64,000 nt of DNA from an uncultured Thermoplasmatales archaeon (GCA_964618505.1 CAZUBH010000012.1:2288-66287), one strand, 5' to 3'; positions 32,550-48,960 are shown, counted from the first letter of the stretch. Numbers and translations are program-made. Notes: generated by a model from the sequence alone, not told the origin.

Positions 32550-33352
32550 GCAGTTTGTTTAATTTTCAAATGACAGTTCAAACAATTAAAGATAATTTCA
32601 AAATTACATTAATTGTTACATTACTTTTTATGGGAATGGCTGCAATGTATGCTGGCATGTACCCAACATTTAAAGAAAGTTTGTTAGAGCTTACTGAAGG
32701 GTTTTCTGATTCTTTTGGTTGGCTTTCAGGCGTTGAAGATATGGCATCTTATGTTGGTTTTTTAAATGTTGAAATGTATCAGATATTTTGGCTGTTGATT
32801 CTTGCAATTTTGATTGGTTTTATTGCTGCATCTACTATCTCAAAAGAGGTAGAGGGAAAGACTATAGATTTATTATTATCAAACCCTGTTTCCAGAAAAC
32901 AGATTATTTTTGAAAAATATATAGCAATGATTCCTATGATTTTAATAATAAATTTTGCTACATTTATTGCTGTATACGCAACTACCATTGCTATAGATGA
33001 AGAAATCAATCTTGGATATTTATTTATGACTCATGTAGTGTCCATACCTTATTTTCTAGCAGTTTTGGGCATAGGTTTTGTTATTTCTGTGATAGTTGAC
33101 GAGAAAATGAAAGCCAGCATTGTAATGGTAGCAATTATCGTTGGCATGTACATTTTTGAGTCTATCAGTTTAATGGCATCTGATTATGAGGCATTGGGCC
33201 TGCTTTCAATTACTCATTACTTTAATCCTTATGATATCTTAAAGTTTGGAGAAATAGATGTTGTTGGTGTTGTAGTATTGATAGTAGTTACTGTGGAATG
33301 CCTTCTTTTTTCCATGCTATACTTCGATTGGAAAGACATAAACGTTTCATAA
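32546..33352 (+). CDS. ABC-2 family transporter permease
   Basis: 6 TM helices. It overlaps the ATPase stop by 4 nt. Confidence 0.7.
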   Translation: MSSLFNFQMTVQTIKDNFKITLIVTLLFMGMAAMYAGMYPTFKESLLELTEGFSDSFGWLSGVEDMASYVGFLNVEMYQIFWLLILAILIGFIAASTISKEVEGKTIDLLLSNPVSRKQIIFEKYIAMIPMILIINFATFIAVYATTIAIDEEINLGYLFMTHVVSIPYFLAVLGIGFVISVIVDEKMKASIVMVAIIVGMYIFESISLMASDYEALGLLSITHYFNPYDILKFGEIDVVGVVVLIVVTVECLLFSMLYFDWKDINVS

Positions 33353-33399: not shown

Positions 33400-35211
33400 G
33401 TGGTGAAAGGAAAAATATTATTATTAATGCTGATTTGCATTCTTCTTTTTTCAAATTTTAGCATTGCTCAAGAAAATGATTGTGGATGTGATGAAGCATA
33501 TAATGCAAATATAAAAAGTAATAATTATAGAACTGGCCTTTTAACAGGTGGACCAAAAATACCGCAAGGAGTTGTTTTTAAAGAAGAATCACCAACTTCA
33601 TGGGACTGGAGAGACGCAGAATATGAAGGAATCTCAGGGGATTGGACCACAGAAATCAAAAATCAAGGTTCATGTGGAAGTTGTTATGCTTTTGGTTCCT
33701 ATGCATCTTTAGAATCGCTAATAAAAATTAAAAGTAAAGACCCTTTTTTATCTGTTGATCTTTCAGAGCAATTCATGGTATCTTGTGGTGAAGAATGGGT
33801 CGATGGAATTCTTGGTTGTAATGGCGCATATTTTGTTCCAACATTTGAATTTTTAGAACAATTCGGAGCAATACCTGAAACTTGCTTCCCATACGTAAGC
33901 GGAGGGAGTGGATATGTTCCTCCCTGTTCAGATAAATGCCCAAATTGGCAAGACCTTCTAATAGAAATTGATGGATGGGGTGTTGTTTCATCAGATGTTG
34001 AATCAATACAAAATGCTTTGATACAATATGGTCCGCTTGTAACTACTATGGTAGTTTATGATGATTTCCACTCTTATCCTGGAGGCATATATGAGCATCC
34101 TGGAAGTGACCCAGATCCAACAAACCACATCGTTTGTATCGTTGGATATGATGATTCTCAGGGGTATTGGATATGTAAAAACAGTTGGGGAACTGGTTGG
34201 GGAGAGAATGGTTGGTTCAGAATTGCCTATGGCGATTGTAAAATCGAACAAGACACTGCATATCTTCAATATACAGATCAAACTGCACCCCAGATTAAAG
34301 TAAAAATGCATAGAATAAAAGAAATTGGAGAAATTGATACTTTTATTGAATTTGGTGCTGACTGGTCTTATAAAATATCAGTTTTTAATGGAGATAGTTG
34401 GACTGAACAAATAAACAATGATTACTCATCAAATGAAGATGATCACATAGAAGATGTTGTTCATAGTTTTAATGTATATGCTGCTGAACCAGAGATTACA
34501 ATAAAGGTTTGGGACAGGGATCTTTTAAGTGGTGATGATTTAGCTGATGTTTCGGGTTATGAAGGAGGTGGTGCAGATAATGATATTTCTGATAGAAGAG
34601 GCGCTATTTTTCATTGTAAATATGATGTAGTAAATAACGAAATAATAGAATTAGACACAATTATTGAAGATGGAAGTTATTACACAAGCTCAGGTACTTA
34701 TAATCCAGATGGGGGGGATAATAGTGATGAAGAAAATGACGCAAAGGTTTGGTTTGATATTTTTGATACATATGAATCTCCTGATGCTGATCTAAAAATT
34801 TATGGCGGTATTCAAGCTGAGGTAGAATCTGGACAAAAAAACTGCAATTTGGGCTCATTTACAGTGGAAAATATAGGTGAAGATCCCTACAGCATATCTG
34901 ATTCATATTTAGATTGGGAGATATTTGAAACTCCTGATTGGGGCTCTAATTGGAGATTTGAGCCAGAGTATGGAGAAGACTTAATAACGGGAGATATTAC
35001 AAATGTTGAGGTTTTTGTAGATGCCCCAAGTCAAGAAGATGATTTTTCAGGAACAATAAAACTACGAAACTCTGAAAATTACAATGACGAGGAGTCTGTA
35101 CTTGTCAATTTAAAAACTCCTATAACAAATAAAGGAATCTTCTGGCAAATCTTAGAATTTTTACAAAATATATTTGAGAAATTGTTTGGATTTATAGGTT
35201 TTCTTACTTAA
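33400..35211 (+). CDS. secreted papain-family cysteine peptidase (C1A) with about 300-aa acidic C-terminal extension
   Basis: GTG start with GGGGG RBS and a signal peptide. The catalytic Cys is in QGSCGSCYAF, the His in NHIVCIVGYDD and the Asn/Trp in KNSWGTGWGENGWFRI. The C-terminal half is rich in D/E/G/Y/W and has no known motif. Confidence 0.8.
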   Translation: MVKGKILLLMLICILLFSNFSIAQENDCGCDEAYNANIKSNNYRTGLLTGGPKIPQGVVFKEESPTSWDWRDAEYEGISGDWTTEIKNQGSCGSCYAFGSYASLESLIKIKSKDPFLSVDLSEQFMVSCGEEWVDGILGCNGAYFVPTFEFLEQFGAIPETCFPYVSGGSGYVPPCSDKCPNWQDLLIEIDGWGVVSSDVESIQNALIQYGPLVTTMVVYDDFHSYPGGIYEHPGSDPDPTNHIVCIVGYDDSQGYWICKNSWGTGWGENGWFRIAYGDCKIEQDTAYLQYTDQTAPQIKVKMHRIKEIGEIDTFIEFGADWSYKISVFNGDSWTEQINNDYSSNEDDHIEDVVHSFNVYAAEPEITIKVWDRDLLSGDDLADVSGYEGGGADNDISDRRGAIFHCKYDVVNNEIIELDTIIEDGSYYTSSGTYNPDGGDNSDEENDAKVWFDIFDTYESPDADLKIYGGIQAEVESGQKNCNLGSFTVENIGEDPYSISDSYLDWEIFETPDWGSNWRFEPEYGEDLITGDITNVEVFVDAPSQEDDFSGTIKLRNSENYNDEESVLVNLKTPITNKGIFWQILEFLQNIFEKLFGFIGFLT

Positions 35212-36061
35212 CCAGTAAAACAGAATAATTACATTTTTCTGTTATTTTCCTTTTGATATTTCTTATTGGTATGCCTAAAACATCCCTTTTTTTCTTTTCT
35301 CTACCTAAAATAACAATTCCTGCGTTAAAATCCTCTGCCGATTTAATTGTTTGCTTTTCAAGACTGCCTTTAACAAGCTCTGATTTAATGTTCTTTTTTT
35401 GAATGTGTGCAACAAATTCTTGACCGTTTGCAATTAAATAATTTTGAGGCTTTTTTTCTGATCTTTTTCCGCTGCTATCAACCTGGACGCTGTCTTCAAC
35501 ATCCACTACATAAATTATTTTCAAATCCCAGCCAAGGATTTCAGATATTTTCATACTTATTTCAGGAACTTTTTTATTTGGCGCCAGATTAGAACATACC
35601 GCAAGAATTGACTTATTTTTATTACCGGACTCTATCCAAACAGGCGTATCTATATCATCAAATAATTTATAATTTAAAATACATTCTTTTTCAAAGCCCA
35701 TCAAAACAAGATCATATTTATCTTTGTTTATTTGTCCTTTAATAACATTTGAAAATTCTCCTTCAGCAATATCCTTTTCAATTGGGATTCCTCTTCTTTT
35801 AAAAAATAATTCTGCCTCTTCAAATATGATTTCATTTGCTTTTTTAATATGTTCTCCAATTACTTCTTTTTTAGTTTCTTCAATGTTATAATAAGTCCTA
35901 TATGAATCTGAAAGCTTATTTGCTTGATCTAGGGTCTTTTCTTCTATTATAAATAGAATTTTTATTTTACTATGAAAGTTTTTTACTAGAATTTCGGCAG
36001 TTTTAAATATCTCTTTTTTAAAAAATTCTGATGAAATTGGAATCAATACATTTTCAAACAA
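35204..36061 (-). CDS. universal stress protein family (tandem UspA-like domains)
   Basis: Two alpha/beta repeats of about 140 aa of the UspA type. The call is weak and rests on pattern only. Confidence 0.4.
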   Translation of the reverse strand: MFENVLIPISSEFFKKEIFKTAEILVKNFHSKIKILFIIEEKTLDQANKLSDSYRTYYNIEETKKEVIGEHIKKANEIIFEEAELFFKRRGIPIEKDIAEGEFSNVIKGQINKDKYDLVLMGFEKECILNYKLFDDIDTPVWIESGNKNKSILAVCSNLAPNKKVPEISMKISEILGWDLKIIYVVDVEDSVQVDSSGKRSEKKPQNYLIANGQEFVAHIQKKNIKSELVKGSLEKQTIKSAEDFNAGIVILGREKKKRDVLGIPIRNIKRKITEKCNYSVLLVK

Positions 36062-36094
36062 AGTATTTTCCTCCTATTTTAGAAAAATTTGATT

Positions 36095-37549
36095 TCAAAT
36101 TCCAAGAACCCCCATCCAATAAATAGCTGCAACTGCAAAAATTACCATAATACAGGCAAAATTTGCAAGAGCTCCTGCTTTGAAAAGATCTTTTGTTGAA
36201 AAATAACCAGAAGAGTAAGTTATTGCATTGCCCGGTGTTGCTATTACAAACATAAAGGCAAGTCCTCCGCTAAGTGCAATTATTAGAGATGCAAGAAGAG
36301 GGCTTATCCCAGGAATTTCAGCAGATATGGCAATTCCAATAGGTAGCAAAATAGCAACAGCACCAACATTTGACATTAAATTTGTCAGAAGAACTGTAAG
36401 GATAATTATTCCAATAATTACCAAATAAGGATTTCCGTTAAAAATATTGAATAAACTATGAGCAAACCAGGCTCCGGCGCCTGTTTTTTGCATTCCTATG
36501 CCAAGAGTAATTGCCCCTCCATAAAGCAGTATTATGCCCCATGGAACTCTTTTTTCAACATCTTTCCAAGTAATACTGCCTGTTGCAAATAGTAAAAATG
36601 AGCCTAAAATTGCAATGACGGCAAGTCCAAAATATTCTGGAGATGAAAAGAAAATCCAAAGTATAATGGTAAGTATCAAAATAAACAAAACAATAAGTTC
36701 ATTTTTAGTTATTTTTCCAACTTTAATAACTTGATTTTTTATTTCTCTTTTTGCGGAAGTAACATTTTTTATCTCAATAGGAAAAGATATTTGTAAAATC
36801 AACCAAACTAAAGGAAGAGAAATGAACACTACGGGCATTGAATATGCCATCCAATCAAAAAATGTGACAATAATTGGATTTTCTAAATCTGCAAGTATTC
36901 CAACAGTAAGAGGGTTTCTTGCACCGCCAACAAGTGTTCCCAAACTTCCTATTGAACACCCATAAGCAATAGATAGCATGCTAATTTTGCCAAAATTGCT
37001 TTGTCTCGGAATTATTTTCATTGCAATAAGTATTGACAAGACAATAGGTAAAAACAAAGCAGCCACACCATGTTCTGGCATAATAAAAGATAGAAAAGCA
37101 CACGAACACATTATTCCAAATGTAAACATTTTTGGACTATCTTCAAAAAAACTAAGAAGTTTTAATGCGATTCTTTTGTGAAGTCCGTGCTTTTCAACAG
37201 CACTTGCAAGTATAAATGCTCCTATTAAAAAGAAGATAGCTTGATTACCAAAAGAAGAAAAAACATCATTTGCAGGCATTATGCCAAGTATAGGCTGAAT
37301 TATCATAATAAGAAGTCCAGTAACAGCCAGAGGAATTGGCTCTGTTATCCAAAGAATTGCACCCATTATTAAAATCGCTACCATCATTTTACCGTTGTGG
37401 GACAGTCCTTCAGGGGTGGGAAGAAAATAGAAAATTATTATTAAAAAAAATGCTAAAAAAATAAAAAATAAATTTTTCTTGGAAAAACTTGATGTTTTTC
37501 CTTTAATCAATCGAAAATCATCATAATTTTCATTGTTTTTTTGATTCAA
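36095..37549 (-). CDS. anion permease of the ArsB/NhaD/DASS (SLC13-like) superfamily
   Basis: 484 aa with about 12-14 TM helices and an internal duplicated topology. Gly/Pro-rich hairpin-like motifs (GSLGTLVGGARN, GNAITYSSG) are present. Confidence 0.5.
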   Translation of the reverse strand: MNQKNNENYDDFRLIKGKTSSFSKKNLFFIFLAFFLIIIFYFLPTPEGLSHNGKMMVAILIMGAILWITEPIPLAVTGLLIMIIQPILGIMPANDVFSSFGNQAIFFLIGAFILASAVEKHGLHKRIALKLLSFFEDSPKMFTFGIMCSCAFLSFIMPEHGVAALFLPIVLSILIAMKIIPRQSNFGKISMLSIAYGCSIGSLGTLVGGARNPLTVGILADLENPIIVTFFDWMAYSMPVVFISLPLVWLILQISFPIEIKNVTSAKREIKNQVIKVGKITKNELIVLFILILTIILWIFFSSPEYFGLAVIAILGSFLLFATGSITWKDVEKRVPWGIILLYGGAITLGIGMQKTGAGAWFAHSLFNIFNGNPYLVIIGIIILTVLLTNLMSNVGAVAILLPIGIAISAEIPGISPLLASLIIALSGGLAFMFVIATPGNAITYSSGYFSTKDLFKAGALANFACIMVIFAVAAIYWMGVLGI

Positions 37550-37670
37550 CTCTTATTACCTGCCTTTTCCCCTCAATCATGTAAATAAAATAATGGTTTA
37601 ATAAATTTGATAAACAATATTTTCAAAATTTTTCTAATTTAGGAAATATTTATATATTTAAATAAAAATA

Positions 37671-38966
37671 GTGTTAAATGGGAAAATGAAGAAACTAGTA
37701 ATTTTATTTATCACATTATTTCTATTGTTAACTACAATGAGTCAAGCTATTTATCCAATACAAAGAAAATCTAGTAATTTTGAAATAAATTTAGAGATGG
37801 AAGACATAATTCAAGATATAAACGAATCTTTAGTTTTTTATTATCACAATAGATTAATGGATTTTGGCCCGAGATACACGGGATCTATCAACTGCAGGCT
37901 TGCCGGAGAATGGATACACAATGAGTTTGAATCAATGGGTCTTTATGCAGAATTTCACGATTGGAGATGTGCAGGATTTGAAAGTAAAAATATAGTTGCC
38001 ACTTTACCAGGCTCAAATGAGTCAAGCACCGCAATAATTATTTTTAGCGCTCATTACGATTGCACACCAGATTCCCTTGGCGCAGACGATGATGGATCGG
38101 GCGTTGCTGCTATAATGGCCGCAGCAAAAGTTCTCAGCGGGCATTCATTTAACCATACAATTCAATTCATAGCATTTTCAGGTGAAGAAGTTGGAACCTA
38201 CGGAAGTTTTTGCTATGCTCAGGATGCTTATGGGCGAGAAGACAACATTTATGCAGTTATCAATGCAGATATGATAGGGTATGCAGATACAAGCAAGGGT
38301 GGAAGAATTATTAATTTTCATTGTCCTGAAAGATCAAGATGGATTGCAGATTTTGCAAGCAGATTAAGTGATAAATATCTTGATTTAGTAGATATAGGAG
38401 TTGAGACTCGCCCAAACTATATTGGTGCTGATCATCAAGCATTTTCTTACTATGGATATGACGGAGTTTGGATTGCACATCATGATGGATACCAATGGGC
38501 AAATTCTCCAGAGGACACTCCAGATCATATAAATCATACATATCAAGTCAAGGCAACAAAATTTTTGACAGCTCTAGTTGTAGAACTTGCCAGCGAACCA
38601 ATTGAAGTCCAAGTAATGATAAAAACTCCTAATGAGGGAACTTTTTATCTGTTTAACAGACCTATTTTTAAATTGACATTTTCAAGGTTATGGTATTTAG
38701 GTTTTAGAGGCATTACTGTTATAAGAGGCAGAACTGTCGCAAGTGCTGAAGTACTTAGTTGTGAAGAAATAGAAAAAGTAGTTTTTTGTATAGATGGAAA
38801 CTTTATGTATTGGGACTACGAACCACCTTATGAATGGGAAATACAAGGAAGATTCGCAGGTCTTTTTGGCAGGCATACATTAAAAGTTTATACTTATACA
38901 ACAACAGGAAAAATTGCATCTGATGAGATGGACATAAATATTAGGACTTTAAACAAGATGTACTAA
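37671..38966 (+). CDS. secreted M28-family zinc aminopeptidase
   Basis: Signal peptide. Zn ligands are in HYDCTP, DDDGSGVAAIM, FSGEEVGTYGS and DMIGY. There is a C-terminal beta-sandwich extension. Confidence 0.8.
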   Translation: MLNGKMKKLVILFITLFLLLTTMSQAIYPIQRKSSNFEINLEMEDIIQDINESLVFYYHNRLMDFGPRYTGSINCRLAGEWIHNEFESMGLYAEFHDWRCAGFESKNIVATLPGSNESSTAIIIFSAHYDCTPDSLGADDDGSGVAAIMAAAKVLSGHSFNHTIQFIAFSGEEVGTYGSFCYAQDAYGREDNIYAVINADMIGYADTSKGGRIINFHCPERSRWIADFASRLSDKYLDLVDIGVETRPNYIGADHQAFSYYGYDGVWIAHHDGYQWANSPEDTPDHINHTYQVKATKFLTALVVELASEPIEVQVMIKTPNEGTFYLFNRPIFKLTFSRLWYLGFRGITVIRGRTVASAEVLSCEEIEKVVFCIDGNFMYWDYEPPYEWEIQGRFAGLFGRHTLKVYTYTTTGKIASDEMDINIRTLNKMY

Positions 38967-39006
38967 AAGTTAGTTTTATATACGACGCTGTCTTATAAAA
39001 ATTAAA

Positions 39007-39675
39007 ATGAGAAAATCATATCTGGTAAGTCTAAATTGTATTATCATATTTTTTATTGTTTCAACTCCTGGCGGATATAGTTCAGAAAATATCGAAATTA
39101 AATCTTGTAAAAAATTACTTTTAACTGGTTTTGAACCATTTGACATATTTCATATTAATCCATCTGAACTAATCGTTGAAAATTTAGATGAGCAAATAAT
39201 AGCTGATAAAGAGATCATTGGATTTGTTTTACCAGTAGATTTTGATAAATCATTAGAAAATATTACAGATTTGATTGAATTATACGAGCCAGATTTTGTT
39301 GTCAGCCTTGGTCTTGATGCAAGTGCTGAATTAATTGAGGTGGAGAAATGTGGTATAAATTTAAAAAGAGGGGAAGGCGATATTTTGCCATGCAGATTAG
39401 ATCGTTCAGGACCATTTTTTAGATTTTCTGATTTTAATGAAAGAGAAATTGTAAAAGAATTAAAAGATGAGGGAATTAAAGCACAACAGAGTTTTTTTGC
39501 AGGTCTTTATGTTTGTAATGCAGTATTGTATGGAACTTTAGATTATATAGATGACAAGAACTTAGATATAAAATCAGGTTTTATCCACGTTCCTTTGCTT
39601 GATACCCAAGATCCTTCTGGAATGAGTATTGATGAATTGATTAGTGCAACAAAAATAATCATAAAGTCTTTGTAA
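39007..39675 (+). CDS. pcp: pyroglutamyl-peptidase I (peptidase C15) with N-terminal signal/anchor
   Basis: LLTGFEPF at the N-terminus, the catalytic Cys in GLYVCNAVLY and the His in FIHVPLL. A hydrophobic leader (LVSLNCIIIFFIVSTPGG) precedes them. Confidence 0.75.
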   Translation: MRKSYLVSLNCIIIFFIVSTPGGYSSENIEIKSCKKLLLTGFEPFDIFHINPSELIVENLDEQIIADKEIIGFVLPVDFDKSLENITDLIELYEPDFVVSLGLDASAELIEVEKCGINLKRGEGDILPCRLDRSGPFFRFSDFNEREIVKELKDEGIKAQQSFFAGLYVCNAVLYGTLDYIDDKNLDIKSGFIHVPLLDTQDPSGMSIDELISATKIIIKSL

Positions 39676-39728
39676 TAATTTAAAGAATCTAAAAAGTTTT
39701 ATAAACAAAAAAATACTGACAAATTATT

Positions 39729-39992
39729 ATGAGAGATTTAACAAAAGCACAATTAACAATTGGACTTTTAGCTTTTTTTGCAACTATGTGGAGTCTTGTT
39801 AAAAATGCTATGACCTCATCAGATGATATTATTGTCTCTGTAGGAATCATAATTGTTTTACTTGTAGTACAAATAATACTTTCTATCGTAATTCTTGGCT
39901 TATTGCAGTGGGTTAACATATACGATTTAAAAACAAATTCTTTGATTACGTTTATAATTCTAGTTGTAGTAGGTTTAACTGCAACATTATAA
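39729..39992 (+). CDS. small membrane protein (2 TM)
   Basis: 87 aa with two hydrophobic helices. Confidence 0.3.
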   Translation: MRDLTKAQLTIGLLAFFATMWSLVKNAMTSSDDIIVSVGIIIVLLVVQIILSIVILGLLQWVNIYDLKTNSLITFIILVVVGLTATL

Positions 39993-40001
39993 AATTTTTT
40001 A

Positions 40002-40988
40002 CTATTTTTTCTTTCTATCTGTGATATCTTTAATTATATGAACTGATCCTGTATATTCTCCCTCTTCGTTAAAAATCGGTGATGCAGATATTTCAATATA
40101 TCTATCAATATTTGGTTCGTAAAAATCTACTGTATGCGATTTTTTAGTTTCTTTTATTTTTTCGCAAGGGCAATAAGAATGAGTCATATTTTTTCCATGA
40201 ATAATTTCATAGCATTTTTTGTTGATAACCTCTCTTTCTGAATCAAAAAATTCAATAAATGCTTTATTTGCTTTTACAATGTTGAAATTTTTATCGTGAA
40301 TTGAAATCATGTCTTTTATAGAGTTAAAAGTTGTCTCCCATTCCGTAAGTAACTTTTTCATCCTATTTTCGGCTTTTTTTTGTTCAGAGATATCTTCAAT
40401 TATTACAGTTGCACCTGGCTCTCCATCATCAAAGGTTGTTGGAATGTTTTTTACCCTAAAATACAAATTTTGATTTTCTAATTTGGTTTCAATACTAGAC
40501 TCTTTTCCATCAAGTGCTTTTTTTATCTTATCAAACATTTCAGATCTGCTAAAAAATGACGAAATAAAATCGTCAATTCTTTGCCCCATCAAGTCATCTC
40601 TTGATGTATCCAAAAAATCCAGTAAATTATCATTTATTCTTACAATTTTCAAATCCTTATCTACTAGTAAAATATAGTCAAGTGTATAGTTTAATATTGC
40701 CGAGAGAGGAATTCTCCTTGAAGGAAAATAAACCTTTGCAGGCCCAAAAGTAACCATTTCAGCTTGACCAGAAATTAATAAAATATCAAGATATTTGGCT
40801 ACAGAATTTCTGTTTATTTTCATTTCCCTAGATATATCTGTAACTGTCATTCCTCTAGGATTTTCTTTTAGAATTTTCTTAATATTTGTCAGTTCCTTTT
40901 GATAACTCTCCACATTACAAAATGTAAACTTGCATATATATGCATTACGTTTTTGTTTAACACTTTTGCCATGCAAAGAGAGAAACAT
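40002..40988 (-). CDS. transcriptional regulator with N-terminal HTH and two PAS domains
   Basis: N-terminal wHTH (RGMTVTDISREMKINRNSVAKYLDILLISGQAEM) followed by two PAS-like repeats. Confidence 0.55.
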   Translation of the reverse strand: MFLSLHGKSVKQKRNAYICKFTFCNVESYQKELTNIKKILKENPRGMTVTDISREMKINRNSVAKYLDILLISGQAEMVTFGPAKVYFPSRRIPLSAILNYTLDYILLVDKDLKIVRINDNLLDFLDTSRDDLMGQRIDDFISSFFSRSEMFDKIKKALDGKESSIETKLENQNLYFRVKNIPTTFDDGEPGATVIIEDISEQKKAENRMKKLLTEWETTFNSIKDMISIHDKNFNIVKANKAFIEFFDSEREVINKKCYEIIHGKNMTHSYCPCEKIKETKKSHTVDFYEPNIDRYIEISASPIFNEEGEYTGSVHIIKDITDRKKK

Positions 40989-41241
40989 TTATATACTAGT
41001 CATTGCATTTAGGCATTGCCAGGCATAAACGCAAGGCAATGTGGTGTTGGGATAAATGAAACTCTTTAACAAAAAACTTAAAATTTCATCTTCAAGCTTT
41101 ATCCTCCGATGCAATCCTATATACGCTGCAATAGATTTTGGGGGAGGTTTTAATCTTTTTAAGATAATAGCAGCATCCCTTAAACTACCGCATCCTTTCC
41201 TCAAAGAAAGAATATTTTCCGTCTTTCCTCCTGGAAATAAT

Positions 41242-41251
41242 GAGGTACCTC
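41242..41251. promoter_or_regulatory. perfect 10-bp palindrome GAGGTACCTC, first copy (the extended 11-mer is TGAGGTACCTC)
   Basis: Seen directly. It lies in the divergent intergenic region between the PAS regulator and the M28 peptidase gene. Confidence 0.4.
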
Positions 41252-41281
41252 TCTGTTTTGTCGCATCCCATGTCTCCTAGT

Positions 41282-41291
41282 GAGGTACCTC
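41282..41291. promoter_or_regulatory. perfect 10-bp palindrome GAGGTACCTC, second copy, 40 bp from the first and about 80 bp upstream of the 41370 ATG
   Basis: Seen directly. It is an exact repeat of the 11-mer TGAGGTACCTC. Confidence 0.4.
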
Positions 41292-41369
41292 CATCCCATC
41301 CATTTTATTATAATTATTTCTATTAAAAAAGTTTATAATATTGGAAATAACTATACTTAGTAGAGACAG

Positions 41370-42644
41370 ATGAATAAAATCAAAGTTTTAAATATTCTAA
41401 TATTATCTGCAATAATATTATTATCTGCTGTAAGTGCACAATCTAATTTTAATAAGGAAAATAAAAATTTTTCAAAAATCTCGGTCATTTATGATCTTAT
41501 AACAGAGGAATTATTAGAAGAATATCTTGAAACACTTGTTGGATATTCGCCAAGAATGACTGGGACATATGGCTGTGAAAAATCTGCAGAATATATATTT
41601 GATTCATTTGAACAAATGGGGCTTGATGTTAGATATCAAAATTGGACTTCATTTGGAAATAGATACTATCCAAGATTATTTGAAGGGAAAAATATAGAAG
41701 CAACGCTTCATGGTAATAACGCATCATCAGAAAAAGTAGTAATTTTTAATGCACATTATGACACCGTTTGGGATACGCCGGGTGCAAATGATGATGGTTC
41801 AGGCACCGCCGCTGTGCTTGCAGCAGCTTATGCTTTAAGTCAATTTGATTTTGAGCATACAATAAAGTTCGTAACATTTTCGGGTGAAGAGGTAGGTCTT
41901 TTGGGAAGTCAGGCTTATGCTAAAGAAGCTTATGAGAATAATTACGACATTTATTTGGAAATAAATGTTGATATGATAGGTAAAGCCACCTCAAAAGAGA
42001 CTGGTAGAAAAATGACACTTGTTTCAACTGAGGATGTTGAATGGTCTTTTGATATATTTGAATCAATTAATTCTTCTTATGAGCTTAATTTTACAATAAA
42101 TAAACATGGATTAAACAGAGACGATAGAGGAGGAAGTGATTACAAATCTTTTATTGACTACGGCTATGAATCTTTAATATGCTGGCAAGCTGAAGGTGAT
42201 GAATTTATGCATACCTCACAAGACGACATGTCAAATGTAAATCTTAGCTATTTAACCAATATGACAAGAATAATTGCAGGCTCAATTGGATATATTGCAG
42301 ACAGTGACACAAACTACCCACAAGTAAGAATAAATTCTCCAAAACAAGGAAAATTATATTATAAAGGCTCTGAAAAACGCAATATAAACACATTAAAATC
42401 AATTGTACTGGATGATATTTGGATATATATTGATGTAATGTATAAAGATGAAAAAATAGAAAAAGCAGAGTTTTACTTTGATAATGTATTAGAATTTGTA
42501 GACACCAAAGAGCCTTTCAAATGGCACATGAATAAATTTTCTTTGGGAAAACATAGGATAACTATTATAACTCACGATAGTAAAGGTCAGAAATCAACTG
42601 ATTATAAAGACATAATGTTTTTCAATATTTTTAAAAACACGTAA
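41370..42644 (+). CDS. secreted M28-family zinc aminopeptidase, paralogue of 37671..38966
   Basis: Signal peptide and the Zn-ligand motifs HYDTV, DDGSGTAAVL, FSGEEVGLLGS and DMIG. Confidence 0.8.
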   Translation: MNKIKVLNILILSAIILLSAVSAQSNFNKENKNFSKISVIYDLITEELLEEYLETLVGYSPRMTGTYGCEKSAEYIFDSFEQMGLDVRYQNWTSFGNRYYPRLFEGKNIEATLHGNNASSEKVVIFNAHYDTVWDTPGANDDGSGTAAVLAAAYALSQFDFEHTIKFVTFSGEEVGLLGSQAYAKEAYENNYDIYLEINVDMIGKATSKETGRKMTLVSTEDVEWSFDIFESINSSYELNFTINKHGLNRDDRGGSDYKSFIDYGYESLICWQAEGDEFMHTSQDDMSNVNLSYLTNMTRIIAGSIGYIADSDTNYPQVRINSPKQGKLYYKGSEKRNINTLKSIVLDDIWIYIDVMYKDEKIEKAEFYFDNVLEFVDTKEPFKWHMNKFSLGKHRITIITHDSKGQKSTDYKDIMFFNIFKNT

Positions 42645-42684
42645 TCTTTTTTTAAATCATATCAAATTCTTTTTTAATAGCAAA

Positions 42685-44664
42685 GTGCATAAGAGTTTAG
42701 AAATGAGCAGAACACTTTCGTCACTTGACATCTATGTAATTGTATCGGAGCTTCAAGAACTCTTAGGAAGTTACGTAGATAAAATATATCAACCTACTCA
42801 TAACGAGGTATTAATTAAAGTAAATAATAAAAAAACAGCAAAAAAAGAGGCAATATATGCTTCTTGCAGTGAATTTTTGTGCCTCACATCAAAAAAAATT
42901 GATGTACCTCAAAAACCGCCAAGTTTTGCAATGGCACTTAGAAAATATATTTCCAATGGAATTATTACAAAAATATGGCAGCATGAATTTGATAGAATAA
43001 TAAAAATTAATGTTAGTAAAAAAGATGGGGAATATACTCTAATTTTTGAGATTTTTAAAAACGGCAATATTATTCTTTTAAGACCTGACGGCACAATATT
43101 AATTCCTTTAATTACACAAAAATGGTCACATAGAATCATAAAAGGAAAACAAAAATATGAATCTCCCCCCTCGCAGTTAAACACATTTGATTTATCATTT
43201 GAGGGTTTTTCAAATATAATTAAAAACAGTGACAAAGATTTAGTAAGAACTCTTGCAGTTGATATAAATTTAAGTGGAAAATATGCTGAAGAGGTTTGCT
43301 TTAGAGCAGATTTTAGCAAAAACATTAAAACAAGTGATTTGAGTCCAAATCAAATTAGCGAAATTTTTGAGTCGTTACGTAGCTTTTTAGCAAAGTTTCA
43401 AAATAAAAATTTCCGGCCCAATTATGTTTCAAAAGAGGGTAAAATAATAGAGATTTGTCCTGTTATTTTCAAGAGCTATCCAGATTATGAAATAAAAAAA
43501 TTAGATAGCTTTTGTAGAGGTTATGAAAAATTCATAGAAAAAAGAGAGGTTAAAACAAAACGTCAAAGCAAACAAGATGAAAAACTTGGAAAGCTTAAAA
43601 GAATGATTGATCAACAAAAAAAAACCATAGAAAAATTTGAAAAAAAGATAGTTGATAAAAAAAAGCAAGGGGACGTCTTATACCTAAATTATCAAAAAAT
43701 TGAAGAAATACTTAACAAAATTACAGATGCTTTAAAGTTAAAAGATAAAACAGAAGTTATAAAAGAAATAAACAAAAATGATTTTGTAAAAATCTTTGAC
43801 CCTACATATGATAAATTTATATTAATATTAAAAGATGAAAAAGGAAAAAATATAGAAATAAATCTTGATTTTAGAAAAAGCGTATCAGAAAACGCAGAAG
43901 ATGCATATGAGTCTAGTAAAAAATTCCAAGATAAAATTCAAGGAGCAAAAGACGCATTAAAAAAAACAGAAGAAAATTTAGATAAATTAAAAGAAAAAGA
44001 AGTTTTAAAGCAGGAGAAAAATAAGGAAAAATCTAATCAAAAAAATTTCTGGTTTGAAAGATTTAGATGGTTTATATCATCTGAAGGAAATATAGTTGTT
44101 GCAGGAAAAGATGCGAAAAGTAATGAAATAGTTGTAAAAAAATATCTTAACGATGGGGATAGATACTGTCATGCGGATGTTCATGGAGCTCCTAGTTGCG
44201 TTATAAAAAACAAAAATATTGAAAATGATACTATAAAAATTTCTGAAAAAACACTAGAAGAAGCATGCATTTTTGCAGCATCTTACTCAAAGGCATGGAA
44301 TCAATTTGCAGAAGCACAATCATATTGGGTTTTACCAGAGCAAGTTAGCAGAACACCAGAAAGTGGAGAATATCTCCCAAAAGGAGCTTTTATTATTAGA
44401 GGAAAAAGAAATCATTTTAGATGTAAACTTGAAATTGCAATTGGAGAGATAAAAATAAAAGATGTGAAAAAAATTATGGCAGGTCCAATAAAGGCAGTTA
44501 ACTCAAAATCTGAAAAATACGTGATAATTAATCCTGGACAAGAAAAGAAAAATGTTGTAGCAAATAAGCTTTCCAAAATATTTAATGTACAAATTGAAGA
44601 TATACAAAAAATACTGCCCCCTGGAGACATAAATATCGTAAAATCAGAAGGGATCAAAATATAG
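42685..44664 (+). CDS. NFACT-family protein (archaeal Rqc2/NEMF/FbpA homologue) with NFACT-N, coiled-coil and NFACT-R (DUF814) domains
   Basis: The C-terminal FERFRWFISSEGNIVVAGKDAKSNEIVVKKYLNDGDRYCHADVHGAPSCVIKN is the DUF814/NFACT-R signature. A long central coiled coil is present. Confidence 0.7.
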   Translation: MHKSLEMSRTLSSLDIYVIVSELQELLGSYVDKIYQPTHNEVLIKVNNKKTAKKEAIYASCSEFLCLTSKKIDVPQKPPSFAMALRKYISNGIITKIWQHEFDRIIKINVSKKDGEYTLIFEIFKNGNIILLRPDGTILIPLITQKWSHRIIKGKQKYESPPSQLNTFDLSFEGFSNIIKNSDKDLVRTLAVDINLSGKYAEEVCFRADFSKNIKTSDLSPNQISEIFESLRSFLAKFQNKNFRPNYVSKEGKIIEICPVIFKSYPDYEIKKLDSFCRGYEKFIEKREVKTKRQSKQDEKLGKLKRMIDQQKKTIEKFEKKIVDKKKQGDVLYLNYQKIEEILNKITDALKLKDKTEVIKEINKNDFVKIFDPTYDKFILILKDEKGKNIEINLDFRKSVSENAEDAYESSKKFQDKIQGAKDALKKTEENLDKLKEKEVLKQEKNKEKSNQKNFWFERFRWFISSEGNIVVAGKDAKSNEIVVKKYLNDGDRYCHADVHGAPSCVIKNKNIENDTIKISEKTLEEACIFAASYSKAWNQFAEAQSYWVLPEQVSRTPESGEYLPKGAFIIRGKRNHFRCKLEIAIGEIKIKDVKKIMAGPIKAVNSKSEKYVIINPGQEKKNVVANKLSKIFNVQIEDIQKILPPGDINIVKSEGIKI

Positions 44665-45717
44665 GTGAAAACATTGAAAGTTTTGTTTAAAGATCCGAAA
44701 AATAAAGAAATTAAACTTGTTGCAGAAAATCTTGACGATATTTGGCATTTATACAATTTAATTGAAGAAGGAGACCTTGTAAGGGCGGTATGCTTTAGAA
44801 CAGATGACCAAAAGGACGATAAAATAAGATCTAAAAAATCAGAAAAAAAGAAAATGAAGCTTGGGATCAGGATAGAAAAAATAAACTTTCATGAGTTTTC
44901 AGATAGACTTAGATTGCATGGAACAATTGAAGAAGGTCCCCAAGACCTTGGATCTTATCACACTCTCAATATTGAAGCAGATAAAATGAATAGTTTTTCT
45001 ATTGTAAAAGACAATTGGAAACACCATCATTTAGAAAGAATTGATGAAGCAGTAAAACAAAGAAAACAGCCACTTCTTATCTTTGTCTCTTTGGATGAAG
45101 ATGAAGCTACTGTAGCGATTCTTAGACAGAGCGGGATACAAAAAATTGCAGATATTAGCTCAAAAAAATCTGGAAAAATGTATGATTGCCAAGATACATC
45201 AAAAGACTATTTTGGCGAAATATTCTCGGTTTTAAAGACTGTAAAAAAAGAGGAGTCCCCAGTTGTGGTAATCGGACCTGGCTTTACAAGAGAACATTTT
45301 ATTAAAGAAGGTAAGCAAAAATATCCTGATATATTTGAAAATTGTAGAACTCATGCAACAGGGCATTCGGAAATGAATGGAATAAATGAGGCGATAAAAC
45401 AAGGCGTTGTTGATCAAATTACAAAAGAAAATAGAGTCGCAATAGAAACTAAATTTGTTGAAAAGGTATTTGAAGAAATTAAAAAAGATGGTTTAGTATC
45501 ATATGGAGAATCTCAAGTTGTTGATGCTCTAGAAAATGGTGCTGTTGAAAGACTTTTAATTTCTGATTTGCTTGTTAGAAGAGATAATGGAATAAAAATA
45601 CTTGAAATTGCAAAAAATACTAACAGTAAATTTACCATAATTAATACAATGCACGAAGCAGGTAAAAAATTTGAAGGAATTGGTGGTATTGCTGCTCTAC
45701 TTCGTTTTAAAATTTGA
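44665..45717 (+). CDS. pelA: Pelota / aDom34 (mRNA surveillance, ribosome rescue factor)
   Basis: GTG start immediately after the NFACT stop. There is an N-terminal Sm-like domain, a central domain and a C-terminal eRF1-like domain (GGIAALLRF tail). Confidence 0.75.
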   Translation: MKTLKVLFKDPKNKEIKLVAENLDDIWHLYNLIEEGDLVRAVCFRTDDQKDDKIRSKKSEKKKMKLGIRIEKINFHEFSDRLRLHGTIEEGPQDLGSYHTLNIEADKMNSFSIVKDNWKHHHLERIDEAVKQRKQPLLIFVSLDEDEATVAILRQSGIQKIADISSKKSGKMYDCQDTSKDYFGEIFSVLKTVKKEESPVVVIGPGFTREHFIKEGKQKYPDIFENCRTHATGHSEMNGINEAIKQGVVDQITKENRVAIETKFVEKVFEEIKKDGLVSYGESQVVDALENGAVERLLISDLLVRRDNGIKILEIAKNTNSKFTIINTMHEAGKKFEGIGGIAALLRFKI

Positions 45718-46494
45718 TTATATCATCAAACGACCATATGTCATTGATTTATAAAATTCTGACAATGCCGTTTCATATATTTCGTCAAATGGATCTGGGT
45801 CATCTCCAGAATCGTTATCACTAGTATCTTTTGTATCATCTTCCATTTCAACAAGATATGGATCATAATAAGAATATGTAATATCTATTGTGAAATCATT
45901 ACCAGATTCGCCAAGTTTTTTAAGAATTCTTATTTCACCTATATCACAAATTACTGTTATTTTAAAATCTTCATTTACCCATGTGTCGTCATAGTATGGC
46001 TCTTCCATTAGCATAGACTCTGCTTCTGACATGTCTTCTGCCTCAATTATATCTGTTGAAGGTATTCCATCAACATTTATGATGATTTCAAAATTACCTT
46101 CTTTTGTCTGCTTTTCACTGGTAGCAGAACCCTCATAAGTCATGCCATCAGGAGTTTCTATTTGTACTGTTATTGTATCTAGACCAAATCTACCAAGGAG
46201 AGGAGCTTTGTCATCAATCCAACTAACATTGAATACAATTTCATTTAAATTTCCTTTATTAAATGAAACGGTCCCTTCATAAGGAGTATTTTTATCAGCA
46301 AAATCTGAAATTGTTTGAGATCCTGATTTAAGATCCCAGTTTACCTCATACATTTCTAATTTGTCATTATCTTTTGAATCGTCATCGCCATTGTCTTCAG
46401 GTGCTTCATACAAAGCAATACCGATTCCAGCAATTACAATTACAGCTACAGCAATAAGAATAATCAGTTTATCGTTTTTTTTCAGGTTTATCAT
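45718..46494 (-). CDS. membrane-anchored, highly acidic extracytoplasmic protein of unknown function
   Basis: A single N-terminal TM (LIILIAVAVIVIAGIGIALY) then about 230 aa rich in D/E. The C-terminal tail is DTSDNDSGDDPDPFDEIYE. Confidence 0.4.
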   Translation of the reverse strand: MINLKKNDKLIILIAVAVIVIAGIGIALYEAPEDNGDDDSKDNDKLEMYEVNWDLKSGSQTISDFADKNTPYEGTVSFNKGNLNEIVFNVSWIDDKAPLLGRFGLDTITVQIETPDGMTYEGSATSEKQTKEGNFEIIINVDGIPSTDIIEAEDMSEAESMLMEEPYYDDTWVNEDFKITVICDIGEIRILKKLGESGNDFTIDITYSYYDPYLVEMEDDTKDTSDNDSGDDPDPFDEIYETALSEFYKSMTYGRLMI

Positions 46495-46611
46495 AGATAC
46501 ACCTTTATTATTTAATTTATATTTATCTGTAAATATAAGTATGTTTCTTCCTTTATTAAATTTTTCCTTTATTTTATATAAATATGCAACTTTAAATCAT
46601 AAAATAAAAAT

Positions 46612-47619
46612 CTAATCTGTTATAATCGAAATAAATTGCCCGCATTTGTCGCATTTATTATTTTTTAAACCAATATTATCTGAAGAAAAACCTTGCCTTT
46701 TTATAATCAAATTACCGCAATTCGGACAAATTGTATTTTCATATTCGAAATTGGGAATATTTCCCAAATAAACGAAATTAATTCCAATTGATTTTGAAAT
46801 TTTATAGATTTCTTCAAGAGTATTTATTGGTGTTGGAGAAAATTTATTCATTTTGTACTGTGGATGAAATCTAGAAAAATGCAAAGGAGTGTTATTGCCA
46901 AGATTGTTGGCAACCCAATTACAATAATTTTCAATTTCGCTTTTTGAGTCATTTAAACCTGGTATTACAAGATAAGTTAGTTCTATGTGAATATCTAAAT
47001 CTTTAGCCATTTTGCAGGTTTCAAGAACTGGCTTAAGCTTGGCTTTGCAAATTTTTTTATAAAAATCTTGGTTAAATGCTTTAACATCTATATTCATAGC
47101 ATCAAGATAATTTGAAATTTCTTCCAGAGGTTTTTTAGTAATATACCCATTTGTCACATAAACTGTATACAATCCATTTTGTTTGGCAAGTTTAGCACAA
47201 TCATAAGTATATTCGTGCCAAATAGTTGGTTCATTGTAAGTCCAAGCAATTCCTCTGCAATTGCTATTTTTTGCAATTTCTATAATTTCTTCGGGTTTCT
47301 TTTCCTCTAATAAATAGTCATTATTGTTTGCTGTTGAAATTCCATAATTTTGACAATTTTCACATTTAAAGTTACATCCCACAGAACCCAAAGAAAGAAC
47401 ATTTGATCCGGGATAAAAATGAAACAATGGTTTTTTTTCTATTGGATCAATGGCAACAGATGAGCAGGAACTATAAATTAAAGAATAGAGCTTTTCTTTT
47501 TCGTTTTTTCTAACACCACAAATACCTACGTTATCGGGCTTGATTATACACTTATGATTGCATAAAAAACATTGTACATTTTCATTTTGGGGCTTGTAAA
47601 ACTTTGCTTCTACTCTCAT
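46612..47619 (-). CDS. AmmeMemoRadiSam-system-type radical SAM enzyme (PFL-activase-like) with C-terminal zinc ribbon
   Basis: The N-terminal QCFLCNHKCIIKPDNVGICGVR auxiliary Cys motif and the canonical SVGCNFKCENCQN radical SAM motif are typical of TIGR04337-like enzymes. The C-terminus carries CPNCG...CDKCG. Confidence 0.65.
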   Translation of the reverse strand: MRVEAKFYKPQNENVQCFLCNHKCIIKPDNVGICGVRKNEKEKLYSLIYSSCSSVAIDPIEKKPLFHFYPGSNVLSLGSVGCNFKCENCQNYGISTANNNDYLLEEKKPEEIIEIAKNSNCRGIAWTYNEPTIWHEYTYDCAKLAKQNGLYTVYVTNGYITKKPLEEISNYLDAMNIDVKAFNQDFYKKICKAKLKPVLETCKMAKDLDIHIELTYLVIPGLNDSKSEIENYCNWVANNLGNNTPLHFSRFHPQYKMNKFSPTPINTLEEIYKISKSIGINFVYLGNIPNFEYENTICPNCGNLIIKRQGFSSDNIGLKNNKCDKCGQFISIITD

Positions 47620-47646
47620 TAAGGTTTTTCATTGCTTCAGTACTTA

Positions 47647-48960
47647 TTAACCTTCTCCCAAATGCATTTCTCTAAGACTTAAAATAAAACCTCTTCTGGG
47701 ATATCTATCGTTTATTTGGGGTTGCATTTCTTCAAAATCTTTAAAGTCTTCATCATTTTCCAAGATATATTTTGCATAGAAAAATGCTTCTTCAACAGAC
47801 ACCATGTCGTTTTTAAATAGACCTAATTGACGTTGAATTCCTCTGCTAAACAAACCGGATTTGTATCCATCTGCATTACCTGTTTTCAAGCCTTCAAACC
47901 ATAAAAGAGAAAATATTGGGCCTCTCAAAGTGCTAGTAAATCCTTTCCTAAATTTACTAGTACTTGAAATCACTATTCTGCCATTTTGAGGTATTTTTGA
48001 TCTGAATAAAATTGACGTTGGAAAGTTAAGTATTGTTTTATCAGCAAATCCGCCACAAAAACAGGCATCAATTATTATACTAACCTTGCTAGATTTTAAA
48101 GGTAGCAAAATCTGACCAAAATCTCTATCAGAGAGAATGTCATCCCACAAAAATATCTGACTTCTCTCAAAAAGTTTTCCACCAGCAAGTGAATCATTGG
48201 AATCCCCATAACCGTGGCTAAACATCCAAATGAAAACTTCGCTATCTCTATATCTGTTTGATTCGTTTATTATTCTATCAAATGTTTTTAATACATTATT
48301 TTTTGTTGCCCCGCCATATGTAAATGCATAATCATGTTGTCTTTGCTGCAAGGTTTCAATTTTTTCACCATATCCGTTATCTGATCTAATCCAACCATCG
48401 TCAAATAAGATGACAATATTTGAAGTTGCATAATTTAAACTTTCAACAAAATAAGCTGCCATTTCTTCTGCCAGATATAGTCCACCGTTGCCAAGTTTAC
48501 TTTCATTTTCTTCAGGAAAGTTTGCAGTTGCAATAAATACGGCATACTTATGAGAGTCAATTTCAACAGAGCGAGGGTTATCAACTTCAATTTGAATTTT
48601 TTCAATTTTTGAAAAATCTATTCCATCCCAAGCCCTAACACTTATTGAGTAAACGCCATCCAAAAGCTTGTAAGTGTCCCAATCAAAGCTCCATTTTATT
48701 GTTCCTTGAGCTTTTTTCCAATCTCCATCCCCCATCTTAACTTCTATTTTTTTGATTTGCTCATTTCCATCTAAATCATAAGAAGTGCCACTTATCATGA
48801 CAAGACTTGAAACTTTCATTTTGTCAATAGGATAATTGATTTCTACTACGGGTTTTTCATTTTTATTTTTAGAATCATCCTCTAAACAACCCGAAAATGT
48901 TGTAACTAAAAGTAGTAAAACGAAAAGTATTGCCAGCAGCTTTTTTTTCATCACTCTCAT
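47647..48960 (-). CDS. secreted or lipoprotein-like caspase-fold cysteine peptidase, C13 legumain/GPI-transamidase-like
   Basis: Signal peptide with SGC lipobox-like motif. There is an N-terminal Ig-like beta-sandwich. The catalytic His is in WMFSHGYG and the Cys in IIDACFCGGF, as in legumain-family His-Gly...Ala-Cys dyads. Confidence 0.6.
   Translation of the reverse strand: MRVMKKKLLAILFVLLLLVTTFSGCLEDDSKNKNEKPVVEINYPIDKMKVSSLVMISGTSYDLDGNEQIKKIEVKMGDGDWKKAQGTIKWSFDWDTYKLLDGVYSISVRAWDGIDFSKIEKIQIEVDNPRSVEIDSHKYAVFIATANFPEENESKLGNGGLYLAEEMAAYFVESLNYATSNIVILFDDGWIRSDNGYGEKIETLQQRQHDYAFTYGGATKNNVLKTFDRIINESNRYRDSEVFIWMFSHGYGDSNDSLAGGKLFERSQIFLWDDILSDRDFGQILLPLKSSKVSIIIDACFCGGFADKTILNFPTSILFRSKIPQNGRIVISSTSKFRKGFTSTLRGPIFSLLWFEGLKTGNADGYKSGLFSRGIQRQLGLFKNDMVSVEEAFFYAKYILENDEDFKDFEEMQPQINDRYPRRGFILSLREMHLGEG

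Follow-up and report, generated by a model that had tools for sequence, protein, structure and literature searches.

A conserved neighbourhood of genes for leader-bearing peptidases in an uncultured Thermoplasmatota archaeon

The 64,000-nt stretch of DNA analysed here (the window; GCA_964618505.1 CAZUBH010000012.1:2288-66287) comes from an uncultured Thermoplasmatota archaeon of ~31% GC. Between positions 33,400 and 48,960 it holds genes for five peptidases with N-terminal leaders, namely a papain-family cysteine peptidase (C1), two M28 aminopeptidase-like proteins (M28a and M28b), a pyroglutamyl peptidase (C15, or Pcp) and a clan CD cysteine peptidase. We find that the region is a real, conserved neighbourhood of exported-peptidase genes, largely ordinary and with a repertoire already catalogued for protein-scavenging archaea. 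Our preferred reading, to which we give a probability of about three in four, is that it is a vertically inherited neighbourhood encoding five extracytoplasmic peptidases for the breakdown of external protein.

The window is evenly AT-rich, and its proteins are also found on Logan and NCBI contigs from runs SRR70482xx. For C1, C15 and the clan CD protein, every homologue that bears a name comes from a metagenome-assembled genome (MAG) assigned to Thermoplasmatota, Thermoplasmatales or Thermoplasmata, or labelled only 'Euryarchaeota archaeon'. The five leader-bearing genes fall within 15 genes. An earlier note on this DNA had named seven peptidase genes in the window; Pfam recovers six of them in place (C1, M28a, M28b, C15, M29 and M32), while the seventh, called C13, proved to be something else.

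Five leader-bearing peptidases

As marks of a Sec leader we took an n-region with Lys or Arg, an h-region of 12–14 residues and small residues at −3 and −1, or the sequence [S/A]G-C. The leaders of C1, M28a, M28b and C15 combine Lys or Arg in the n-region with an h-region of 12–14 residues and with small residues ahead of a plausible cleavage site, and that of the clan CD protein ends in FSGC, a lipobox. All five leaders look like Sec signal peptides or, in the last case, a lipobox. They are also conserved by a simple hydrophobicity/charge test: the C1 leader is present in 96 of 120 homologues (of the remainder, at least three are fragments lacking the N-terminus, and others seem to have been called with too short a start), the C15 leader in 117 of 120, and the clan CD leader and lipobox in 116 of the 120 homologues listed, with SGC near-invariant.

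C1 (33400–35211, + strand) is a predicted exported, multidomain papain-family (C1A) cysteine peptidase. Residues 65–288 match Peptidase_C1 (PF00112) at 2.4e-50 and 172.1 bits, against a cut-off of 20.7, and the best match in the PDB is the catalytic domain of DPP1 (cathepsin C; 7.4e-39). Specifically, the catalytic Gln, Cys, His and Asn, carried by NQGSCGSCYAF, TNHIVCIVGY and KNSWGTGWGENG, align with the equivalent motifs of DPP1 (3PDF). A signal peptide (residues ~1–24) is followed by a 40-aa linker, the catalytic domain, an acidic two-module extension (residues 289–575) and a hydrophobic or amphipathic C-terminal tail. No I29 propeptide was matched in Pfam, and only the linker separates the signal peptide from the catalytic domain; I29 is not needed for C1 membership, as there are short prokaryotic C1A enzymes without it (PMC10380794).

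Everything that follows the catalytic domain (residues 289–603, 315 aa) is 22% Asp plus Glu with a net charge of −49, and the acidic extension is conserved among the orthologues. Neither Pfam nor the PDB sequences contain a relative of it, a profile search of the PDB giving chance-level matches only. The description of a secreted C1A enzyme with an acidic C-terminal extension of ~300 aa, put forward in the earlier note, agrees with these results, with secretion predicted from the Sec-type leader. C1 resembles DPP1 and the prokaryotic multidomain C1A enzymes in its catalytic Gln/Cys/His/Asn and in its 'short', I29-less N-terminus; unlike DPP1, it lacks the exclusion domain and carries the 315-aa extension. 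Multidomain C1A architectures are frequent among prokaryotes (Kordis and Turk 2023, PMC10380794), and more distant C1 paralogues have PKD, rhodanese or Big_7 domains in place of the acidic extension.

Further features of C1 and its relatives are recorded here. The linker (residues 25–64) contains a conserved DCGC motif and a YRTGLL motif ahead of the catalytic domain. The last ~30 residues (575–603) are poorly conserved and always hydrophobic or amphipathic, and may be a membrane or envelope anchor. Three Thermoplasmatales contigs (L028, 6.3 kb; L006; L005) carry two to four C1 domains in tandem or close together, pointing to the papain family having expanded locally within the phylum.

M28a (37686–38966, + strand) is an M28 aminopeptidase-like protein, predicted to be exported, whose C-terminal domain is beta-rich, and M28b (41370–42644, + strand) a predicted exported M28 aminopeptidase with a C-terminal Ig-like domain that gives a weak Big_7 match. 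Both match PF04389 far above the cut-off of 21.3 bits (M28a, 4.5e-32 and 111.8 bits; M28b, 1.7e-35 and 122.9 bits). A GTG at 37671 would allow a longer M28a open reading frame (ORF), but public gene calls (426 aa) begin at the ATG at 37686. The two proteins are 32% identical, share a common architecture and are distant paralogues, in line with the proposal of two paralogous secreted M28 enzymes at 37671 and 41370, whose Sec-type leaders would direct them out of the cell.

M28b has the complete co-catalytic metal-ligand set of five residues (His, Asp, Glu, Asp/Glu, His), including the His of MHTSQDD, together with the catalytic Glu. In M28a, His128, the Asp, the Glu-Glu pair and Asp200 are present, and the final His is replaced by Asn in WANSPEDT, which aligns with WYHTPNDT of 2EK8. 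This Asn (~residues 303–304, in the M28 HTxxDT motif, at the place of the second Zn-ligand His) is kept in the orthologue on contig L086, and more distant orthologues have His. Compared with the Vibrio/Aeromonas aminopeptidase AAP (1AMP), the Aneurinibacillus enzyme (2EK8) and Bacillus YwaD (6HC6), both paralogues have the same catalytic domain, with the full ligand set in M28b; they differ by their C-terminal Ig-like or beta-rich domain, and the M28a subclade differs from 1AMP by the Asn at the ligand equivalent to His256. A glutaminyl-cyclase-like reading of M28a was rejected, since M28a loses the opposite metal site.

C15 (39007–39675, + strand) encodes a leader-bearing pyroglutamyl peptidase I. 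It matches PF01470 at 1.5e-34 and 120.2 bits (cut-off 22.7) and lies under the NCBIfam equivalog/subfamily cut-offs (129.8 versus 199). Its residue 36 aligns with residue 2 of Pyrococcus furiosus Pcp (1IOF), and residues 1–35 form a hydrophobic leader of the n-h-c type. Over residues 36–219 it has the same fold as 1IOF and the Bacillus amyloliquefaciens enzyme (1AUG), and the Glu/Cys/His triad is intact: IEVEK, GLYVCN and GFIHVP align with the motifs of Glu79, Cys142 and His166 in the P. furiosus enzyme. Whereas classical Pcp is cytosolic and begins at residue 2, the clade of the window protein adds a conserved signal-like leader of 20–50 residues.

An exhaustive search of C15 representatives found 4029. 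Nearly all of the top 45 have a leader (26 by a strict motif and ~11 more by eye), and those past rank 45 are almost all classical. The leader-bearing clade comprises ~40 representatives at 50% clustering, ~1% of the C15 representatives seen. Because the leader is conserved both in the homologues and in the top representatives, we conclude that the predicted exported Pcp is a discrete conserved clade and no start-codon artefact, which bears out the claim that the gene at 39007 encodes a pyroglutamyl peptidase with an N-terminal hydrophobic leader. A search of metagenome contigs with the single C15 sequence returned one short locus only.

Directly after C15, always in this place and on the same strand, lies hyp87 (39729–39992, +), a seemingly unannotated ORF for a conserved 87-aa hydrophobic (membrane) protein. 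It has no Pfam match and is 45–49% identical to the 86/88-aa ORFs that follow C15 in contigs L086, L089, L091 and L093. A scan for sigma-70 promoters and terminators gave fewer sites than shuffled sequences, and its bacterial model is not meaningful for an archaeon.

The fifth gene (47647–48960, − strand), described in the earlier note as a legumain-like C13 peptidase, encodes a cysteine peptidase of clan CD (caspase-hemoglobinase fold), of the type of a surface lipoprotein. Its lipobox leader is followed by a Big_7 Ig domain (residues 37–108) and a protease domain (~130–437) with a His248/Cys299 dyad. Big_7 is its sole Pfam match; NCBIfam gave no peptidase family, and phmmer and profile searches of PDB sequences gave no protease except metacaspase-4 at E = 0.67. 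The protein itself matches neither the C14 profile (PF00656) nor, even at E ≤ 10, the C13 profile.

More than 600 homologues were found, and the 120 listed have the same length and, almost all, the same Big_7 architecture. In an alignment of 36 orthologues, His248-Gly249 and Asp297-Ala298-Cys299 are invariant, which is the clan CD dyad. When these 36 were scanned singly, 16 matched Peptidase_C14 (PF00656; best 5e-7) and 11 matched Peptidase_C13 (best 0.0025). In particular, orthologue P0051 passes the C14 cut-off (28.7 versus 21.4 bits) and stays below that of C13 (13.7 versus 22.8 bits, the only C13 score seen). Two orthologues bear the NCBI name 'caspase family protein'. A PDB fold search with the full-length AlphaFold model gave only Ig-domain matches. 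With a model of the protease domain alone, ranks 1–30 were all clan CD, followed by one unrelated match at rank 31; the MALT1 paracaspase and metacaspases 4 and 9 came first, legumain from rank 13, and C11 and caspase-3 lower, at template-modelling scores of only 0.30–0.36 for a low-confidence model (predicted local distance difference test score of 61). The dyad residues are located at the ends of predicted strands.

Membership of clan CD is thus established, and C14-like is a better label than C13, for which the protein has no match and whose threshold the scored orthologue does not reach. The protein shares with C14 and C13 enzymes a caspase-like sheet whose strands 3 and 4 are followed by the His-Gly and Ala-Cys of the dyad. 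It differs from them in lying under both Pfam thresholds, and from cytosolic metacaspases and lysosomal legumain in being a predicted surface protein with a lipobox and an Ig domain. A likely mis-annotation is thereby corrected, as the label of legumain cannot be demonstrated for this predicted surface lipoprotein of clan CD.

The clan CD gene is co-oriented with two others (45718–48960, − strand), an AmmeMemoRadiSam radical SAM gene (TIGR04337, 363 bits) and a gene for a transmembrane-anchored acidic protein of 258 aa, with gaps of 27 and 117 nt. The trio also occurs in contig L087, and no functional link is evident. We rejected a reading of the clan CD and radical SAM pair as a system for ribosomally synthesised and post-translationally modified peptides, as the radical SAM protein is an AmmeMemoRadiSam enzyme.

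Gene order and its conservation

We compared the window with contig L086 and with five more distant contigs (L089/L090, L091, L092, L093 and L094). L086 (133.6 kb; ~62% protein identity) is collinear with the window block. Its order runs radical SAM, RNase III, a hypothetical gene, an ABC-2 pair, an insertion of three genes (one of them C25 gingipain-like), C1, Usp and DASS, and continues with M28, C15, a small ORF and PAS. Where the window has M28b an MG2-domain protein stands here, and after it come NFACT, Pelota, a hypothetical gene, radical SAM, clan CD and AIRS. The MG2 protein at the M28b position is alpha-2-macroglobulin-like.

L089/L090, L091, L092 and L094 share the arrangement M14-C25-M28→C15, after which come PAS on the other strand, a gene with a receiver domain, another M28 gene, and NFACT with Pelota; the small ORF after C15 is called in three of these four. 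L093 reads C15→hyp88–C25–PAS–response regulator–M28b, the gene upstream of C15 being cut off by the contig end. M28b orthologues stand upstream of NFACT in three contigs (L091, L092 and L094), and L093 has one at the equivalent place but ends before NFACT. The order M28→C15→hyp88 is invariant wherever the gene upstream is readable, a placement directly downstream of a predicted exported M28 that also sets this type of C15 apart from classical Pcp. With the exceptions just given, the core of M28, C15, the small membrane protein, PAS and M28 returns in all six contigs compared, often joined by C25 and M14 genes.

Several observations on these contigs stand beside the synteny. The C25 gingipain-like genes of the relatives encode 555–858 aa, some with propeptide and PKD domains (L086:7433-9868; L093:1478-4054), and in L089/L090/L092/L094 the C25 genes and M14+MAM carboxypeptidase genes lie upstream of M28 within the same island. 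In the window, NFACT (Rqc2/RqcH-like) and Pelota (42685–45717, + strand) abut with a 0-nt gap; L086/L087 and L094 keep the pair, and in L091 and L092, whose retrieved loci stop short of Pelota, NFACT is found at the corresponding place. A linked ribosome-rescue or quality-control pair is thereby suggested for this archaeal lineage.

Between C15 and M28b lies a gene for a putative helix-turn-helix (HTH)-PAS regulator (40002–40988, − strand; PAS_9, 2.6e-24), with two PAS domains and a weak winged-HTH N-terminus whose matches, at residues 36–88, are sub-threshold. It holds this fixed position in L086 and L089–L094 as well. The relatives add a receiver-domain gene beside it, which the window lacks; a search of the window for remnants of a response regulator, C25 or M14 found none, save for PKD-domain similarity in 57909–59189.

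What these observations partly support is a peptidase island, a conserved block that has variable slots for peptidases and a candidate regulator within it, and not a self-contained operon. Since the synteny is conserved, we regard the clustering as not accidental, an argument that carries no formal statistic. The chief alternative, which we consider unlikely, is that there is no functional locus, and that independent, separately transcribed peptidase genes sit on the conserved backbone of a peptidase-rich genome. It is favoured by the genes interleaved with the peptidases (Usp, DASS symporter, HTH-PAS, NFACT, Pelota, the acidic transmembrane protein, the AmmeMemoRadiSam enzyme and PurM), many of them unrelated housekeeping genes, by the mixed orientations, and by the dozens of extracellular peptidases per genome in related MAGs (PMC6461988 supplement). 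However, the variable slots in relatives hold yet more predicted exported peptidases (C25 upstream of C1; M14-C25 upstream of M28-C15), and both the M28→C15→hyp88 order and the position of the PAS (and receiver) regulator pair are fixed. The earlier notion of a dedicated protein-scavenging locus therefore survives as a recurrent neighbourhood of exported peptidases, with C25 and M14 in its variable slots in relatives, and loses the word 'dedicated', given that housekeeping genes are interleaved and that no importer was found among the annotated genes.

An ABC-2 type exporter (ATPase and permease, 31647–33352, + strand; PF00005, PF12679) ends 47 nt upstream of C1 and had been counted as part of that locus. 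It is DrrA/GldA-GldF-like, and its adjacency to C1, in keeping with the no-locus alternative, is not kept: 2.5 kb separate the two in L002, and 4.3 kb do so in L086. With a Sec-type leader on each of the peptidases, nothing calls for tying the pair to them, and we judge it neither a protein exporter nor functionally part of the set.

A second alternative accepts the neighbourhood and assigns it to the envelope instead of nutrition, through maturation or turnover of surface proteins (S-layer, Ig/PKD) or through pyroglutamate processing on the cell's own secreted proteins. Consistent with this, the clan CD protein appears to be a cell-attached lipoprotein with an Ig domain, the window codes for several surface proteins of Ig, PKD or beta-helix type, no importer turned up nearby, and the metal site of M28a is degenerate. 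Against it, the mix of endo- and exopeptidases matches the protein-degradation repertoire of related archaea, some of it highly expressed (PMC6461988), and the cluster gains C25 gingipain-like and M14 carboxypeptidase genes in relatives. We regard an envelope role as quite improbable.

Composition and ancestry

None of the seven peptidase genes departs from the window norm in GC content, GC3 or codon-usage distance (|z| < 2); GC across C1 is 0.348 against a mean of 0.314 (z = 1.4). A rough neighbour-joining tree, built without bootstrap from the C1 domains of the 80 genome loci retained, puts the window C1 in an all-Thermoplasmata clade. Other Thermoplasmata paralogues in the tree are mixed with sequences from bacteria and methanogens, and two to four copies occur on some contigs.

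The earlier note took C1 and C13 enzymes to be rare in archaea and perhaps acquired horizontally. Papain-family enzymes are, on the contrary, widespread in Archaea including Thermoplasmatota (PMC10380794), with three to seven extracellular C01A peptidases per Thermoprofundales MAG (PMC6461988). Codon usage is native to the window, and the C1 phylogeny, rough as it is, places the window C1 among Thermoplasmata. Recent horizontal transfer of the peptidase genes is not supported, and ancient inter-domain exchange in the C1 family is possible. That the C1 and clan CD genes form a horizontally acquired island, bacterial or eukaryote-like, is very hard to sustain: the C1 family is patchy overall with bacterial and archaeal sequences mixed in the tree, 56% of archaeal short C1A peptidases are estimated to derive from horizontal transfer (PMC10380794) and GC is slightly raised across C1, but GC3 and codon usage are normal for the window, the block is collinear in a ~62%-identity relative, the hundreds of full-length orthologues are Thermoplasmatota wherever named, the window C1 sits inside its all-Thermoplasmata clade, and no integrase or mobile-element gene was seen within the block.

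Other genes of the window

The remaining peptidase calls are an M29 aminopeptidase (25194–26309, − strand; PF02073, 1.6e-93, 314.2 bits) and an M32 carboxypeptidase of the Taq type (52395–53891, + strand; PF02074, 5.6e-165, 550.1 bits), both far above the Pfam threshold, as the earlier note had them. As their N-termini lack a leader, the two enzymes are presumably cytosolic and outside the exported set.

Two NosD/right-handed beta-helix proteins (5301–6482, + strand; 23256–25085, − strand) are probably further surface proteins, one of them with a Big_7 Ig domain like that of the clan CD protein and M28b. A PKD/lectin-like surface protein (57909–59189) seemingly lacks a leader, and its PKD region resembles the PKD parts found in C25 and MG2 proteins of the related contigs. 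An ABC-2 ATPase and permease occur a second time (55230–57430), followed by YjbQ. The remaining genes are housekeeping, comprising glycosyltransferases, GluRS, phosphoglycerate mutase and a glycogen/alpha-glucan cluster (14241–21369) with two GT4/GT5 glycogen-synthase-like genes, GH57, amylo-alpha-1,6-glucosidase (GDE) and glycogen phosphorylase.

Discussion

In our preferred reading, vertically inherited genes for five extracytoplasmic peptidases would act together on external protein. Each enzyme would leave the cytoplasm by its own Sec-type signal peptide (C1, M28a, C15 and M28b) or lipobox (clan CD), making a dedicated transporter unnecessary. C1 and the clan CD lipoprotein would be the endopeptidases, cutting proteins to peptides on the cell surface or close to it, and the M28 enzymes the aminopeptidases that trim N-termini. 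The exported Pcp would remove the N-terminal pyroglutamate that blocks aminopeptidases, a role that would account for its constant place just downstream of an M28 gene. The genes for uptake would lie elsewhere, with the leaderless M29 and M32 finishing hydrolysis in the cytoplasm, and the embedded HTH-PAS protein is a candidate regulator of the cluster. The dominance of cysteine peptidases suits an anoxic habitat.

A more specific proposal, which we offer tentatively, is that the leader-bearing Pcp, the upstream M28 and the downstream 87-aa membrane protein form an extracellular 'N-terminal unblocking' module that acts on detrital peptides which have aged and cyclised spontaneously, in an island under HTH-PAS (plus receiver) control. 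If true, this would be an adaptation of sediment Thermoplasmatota to degraded protein, with a classically cytosolic enzyme relocated.

Several points weigh against reading the region as an exported protein-degrading set. The leaders were judged by a simple heuristic of n- and h-region hydrophobicity and charge and not by a trained predictor, and that of C15 could be an uncleaved membrane anchor instead of a signal peptide. With its altered ligand, M28a may bind a single metal, be weakened or be non-catalytic. Unrelated housekeeping genes stand between the peptidase genes, both strands are used, and no peptide or amino-acid importer was found among the annotated window genes. The 40-nt gap between M28a and C15 contains a TATA-like motif, which leaves their co-transcription open to doubt. 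Furthermore, a stable-isotope-probing study saw no uptake of labelled protein by Thermoprofundales (PMC9123169), the group with which the window is best compared in repertoire. The window is placed at the level of Thermoplasmatota, and an order-level tie to Thermoprofundales, also known as MBG-D (for Marine Benthic Group D), is not established.

Lloyd and colleagues reportedly described, in 2013, extracellular peptidases of MBG-D and related sediment Thermoplasmatota. Among eight Thermoprofundales MAGs, peptidases predicted to be extracellular include C01A in 8/8 (three to seven copies), C14B in 5/8 and C15 in 1/8, together with C25 and M28A/E, and several of the extracellular families are expressed (Zhou et al. 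2019, PMC6461988). The predicted extracellular set of the window corresponds to this one (C01A, M28 and C15, and a C14-like clan CD protein where the MAGs have C14B), with cysteine peptidases dominant; C25 and M14 are present in its relatives, while the window itself has no C25, M14 or M09B. The Thermoprofundales repertoire is published as per-genome family lists, in which we did not find a conserved gene order described. What is mildly new here is the predicted exported Pcp clade paired with M28, and the gene order; we found no published description of either and regard them as modest additions.

A major part in the degradation of detrital protein is ascribed to Thermoplasmatota of sediment and sea, and their exported enzymes and gene organisation help to link genomes to measured extracellular peptidase activities. 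To the list of families the window adds little. It supplies instead a conserved arrangement, in which M28, a predicted exported Pcp and a small membrane protein follow one another, accompanied by a PAS regulator, a second M28 and variable slots for C1, C25 and M14. Both this arrangement and the exported Pcp clade can be tested biochemically.

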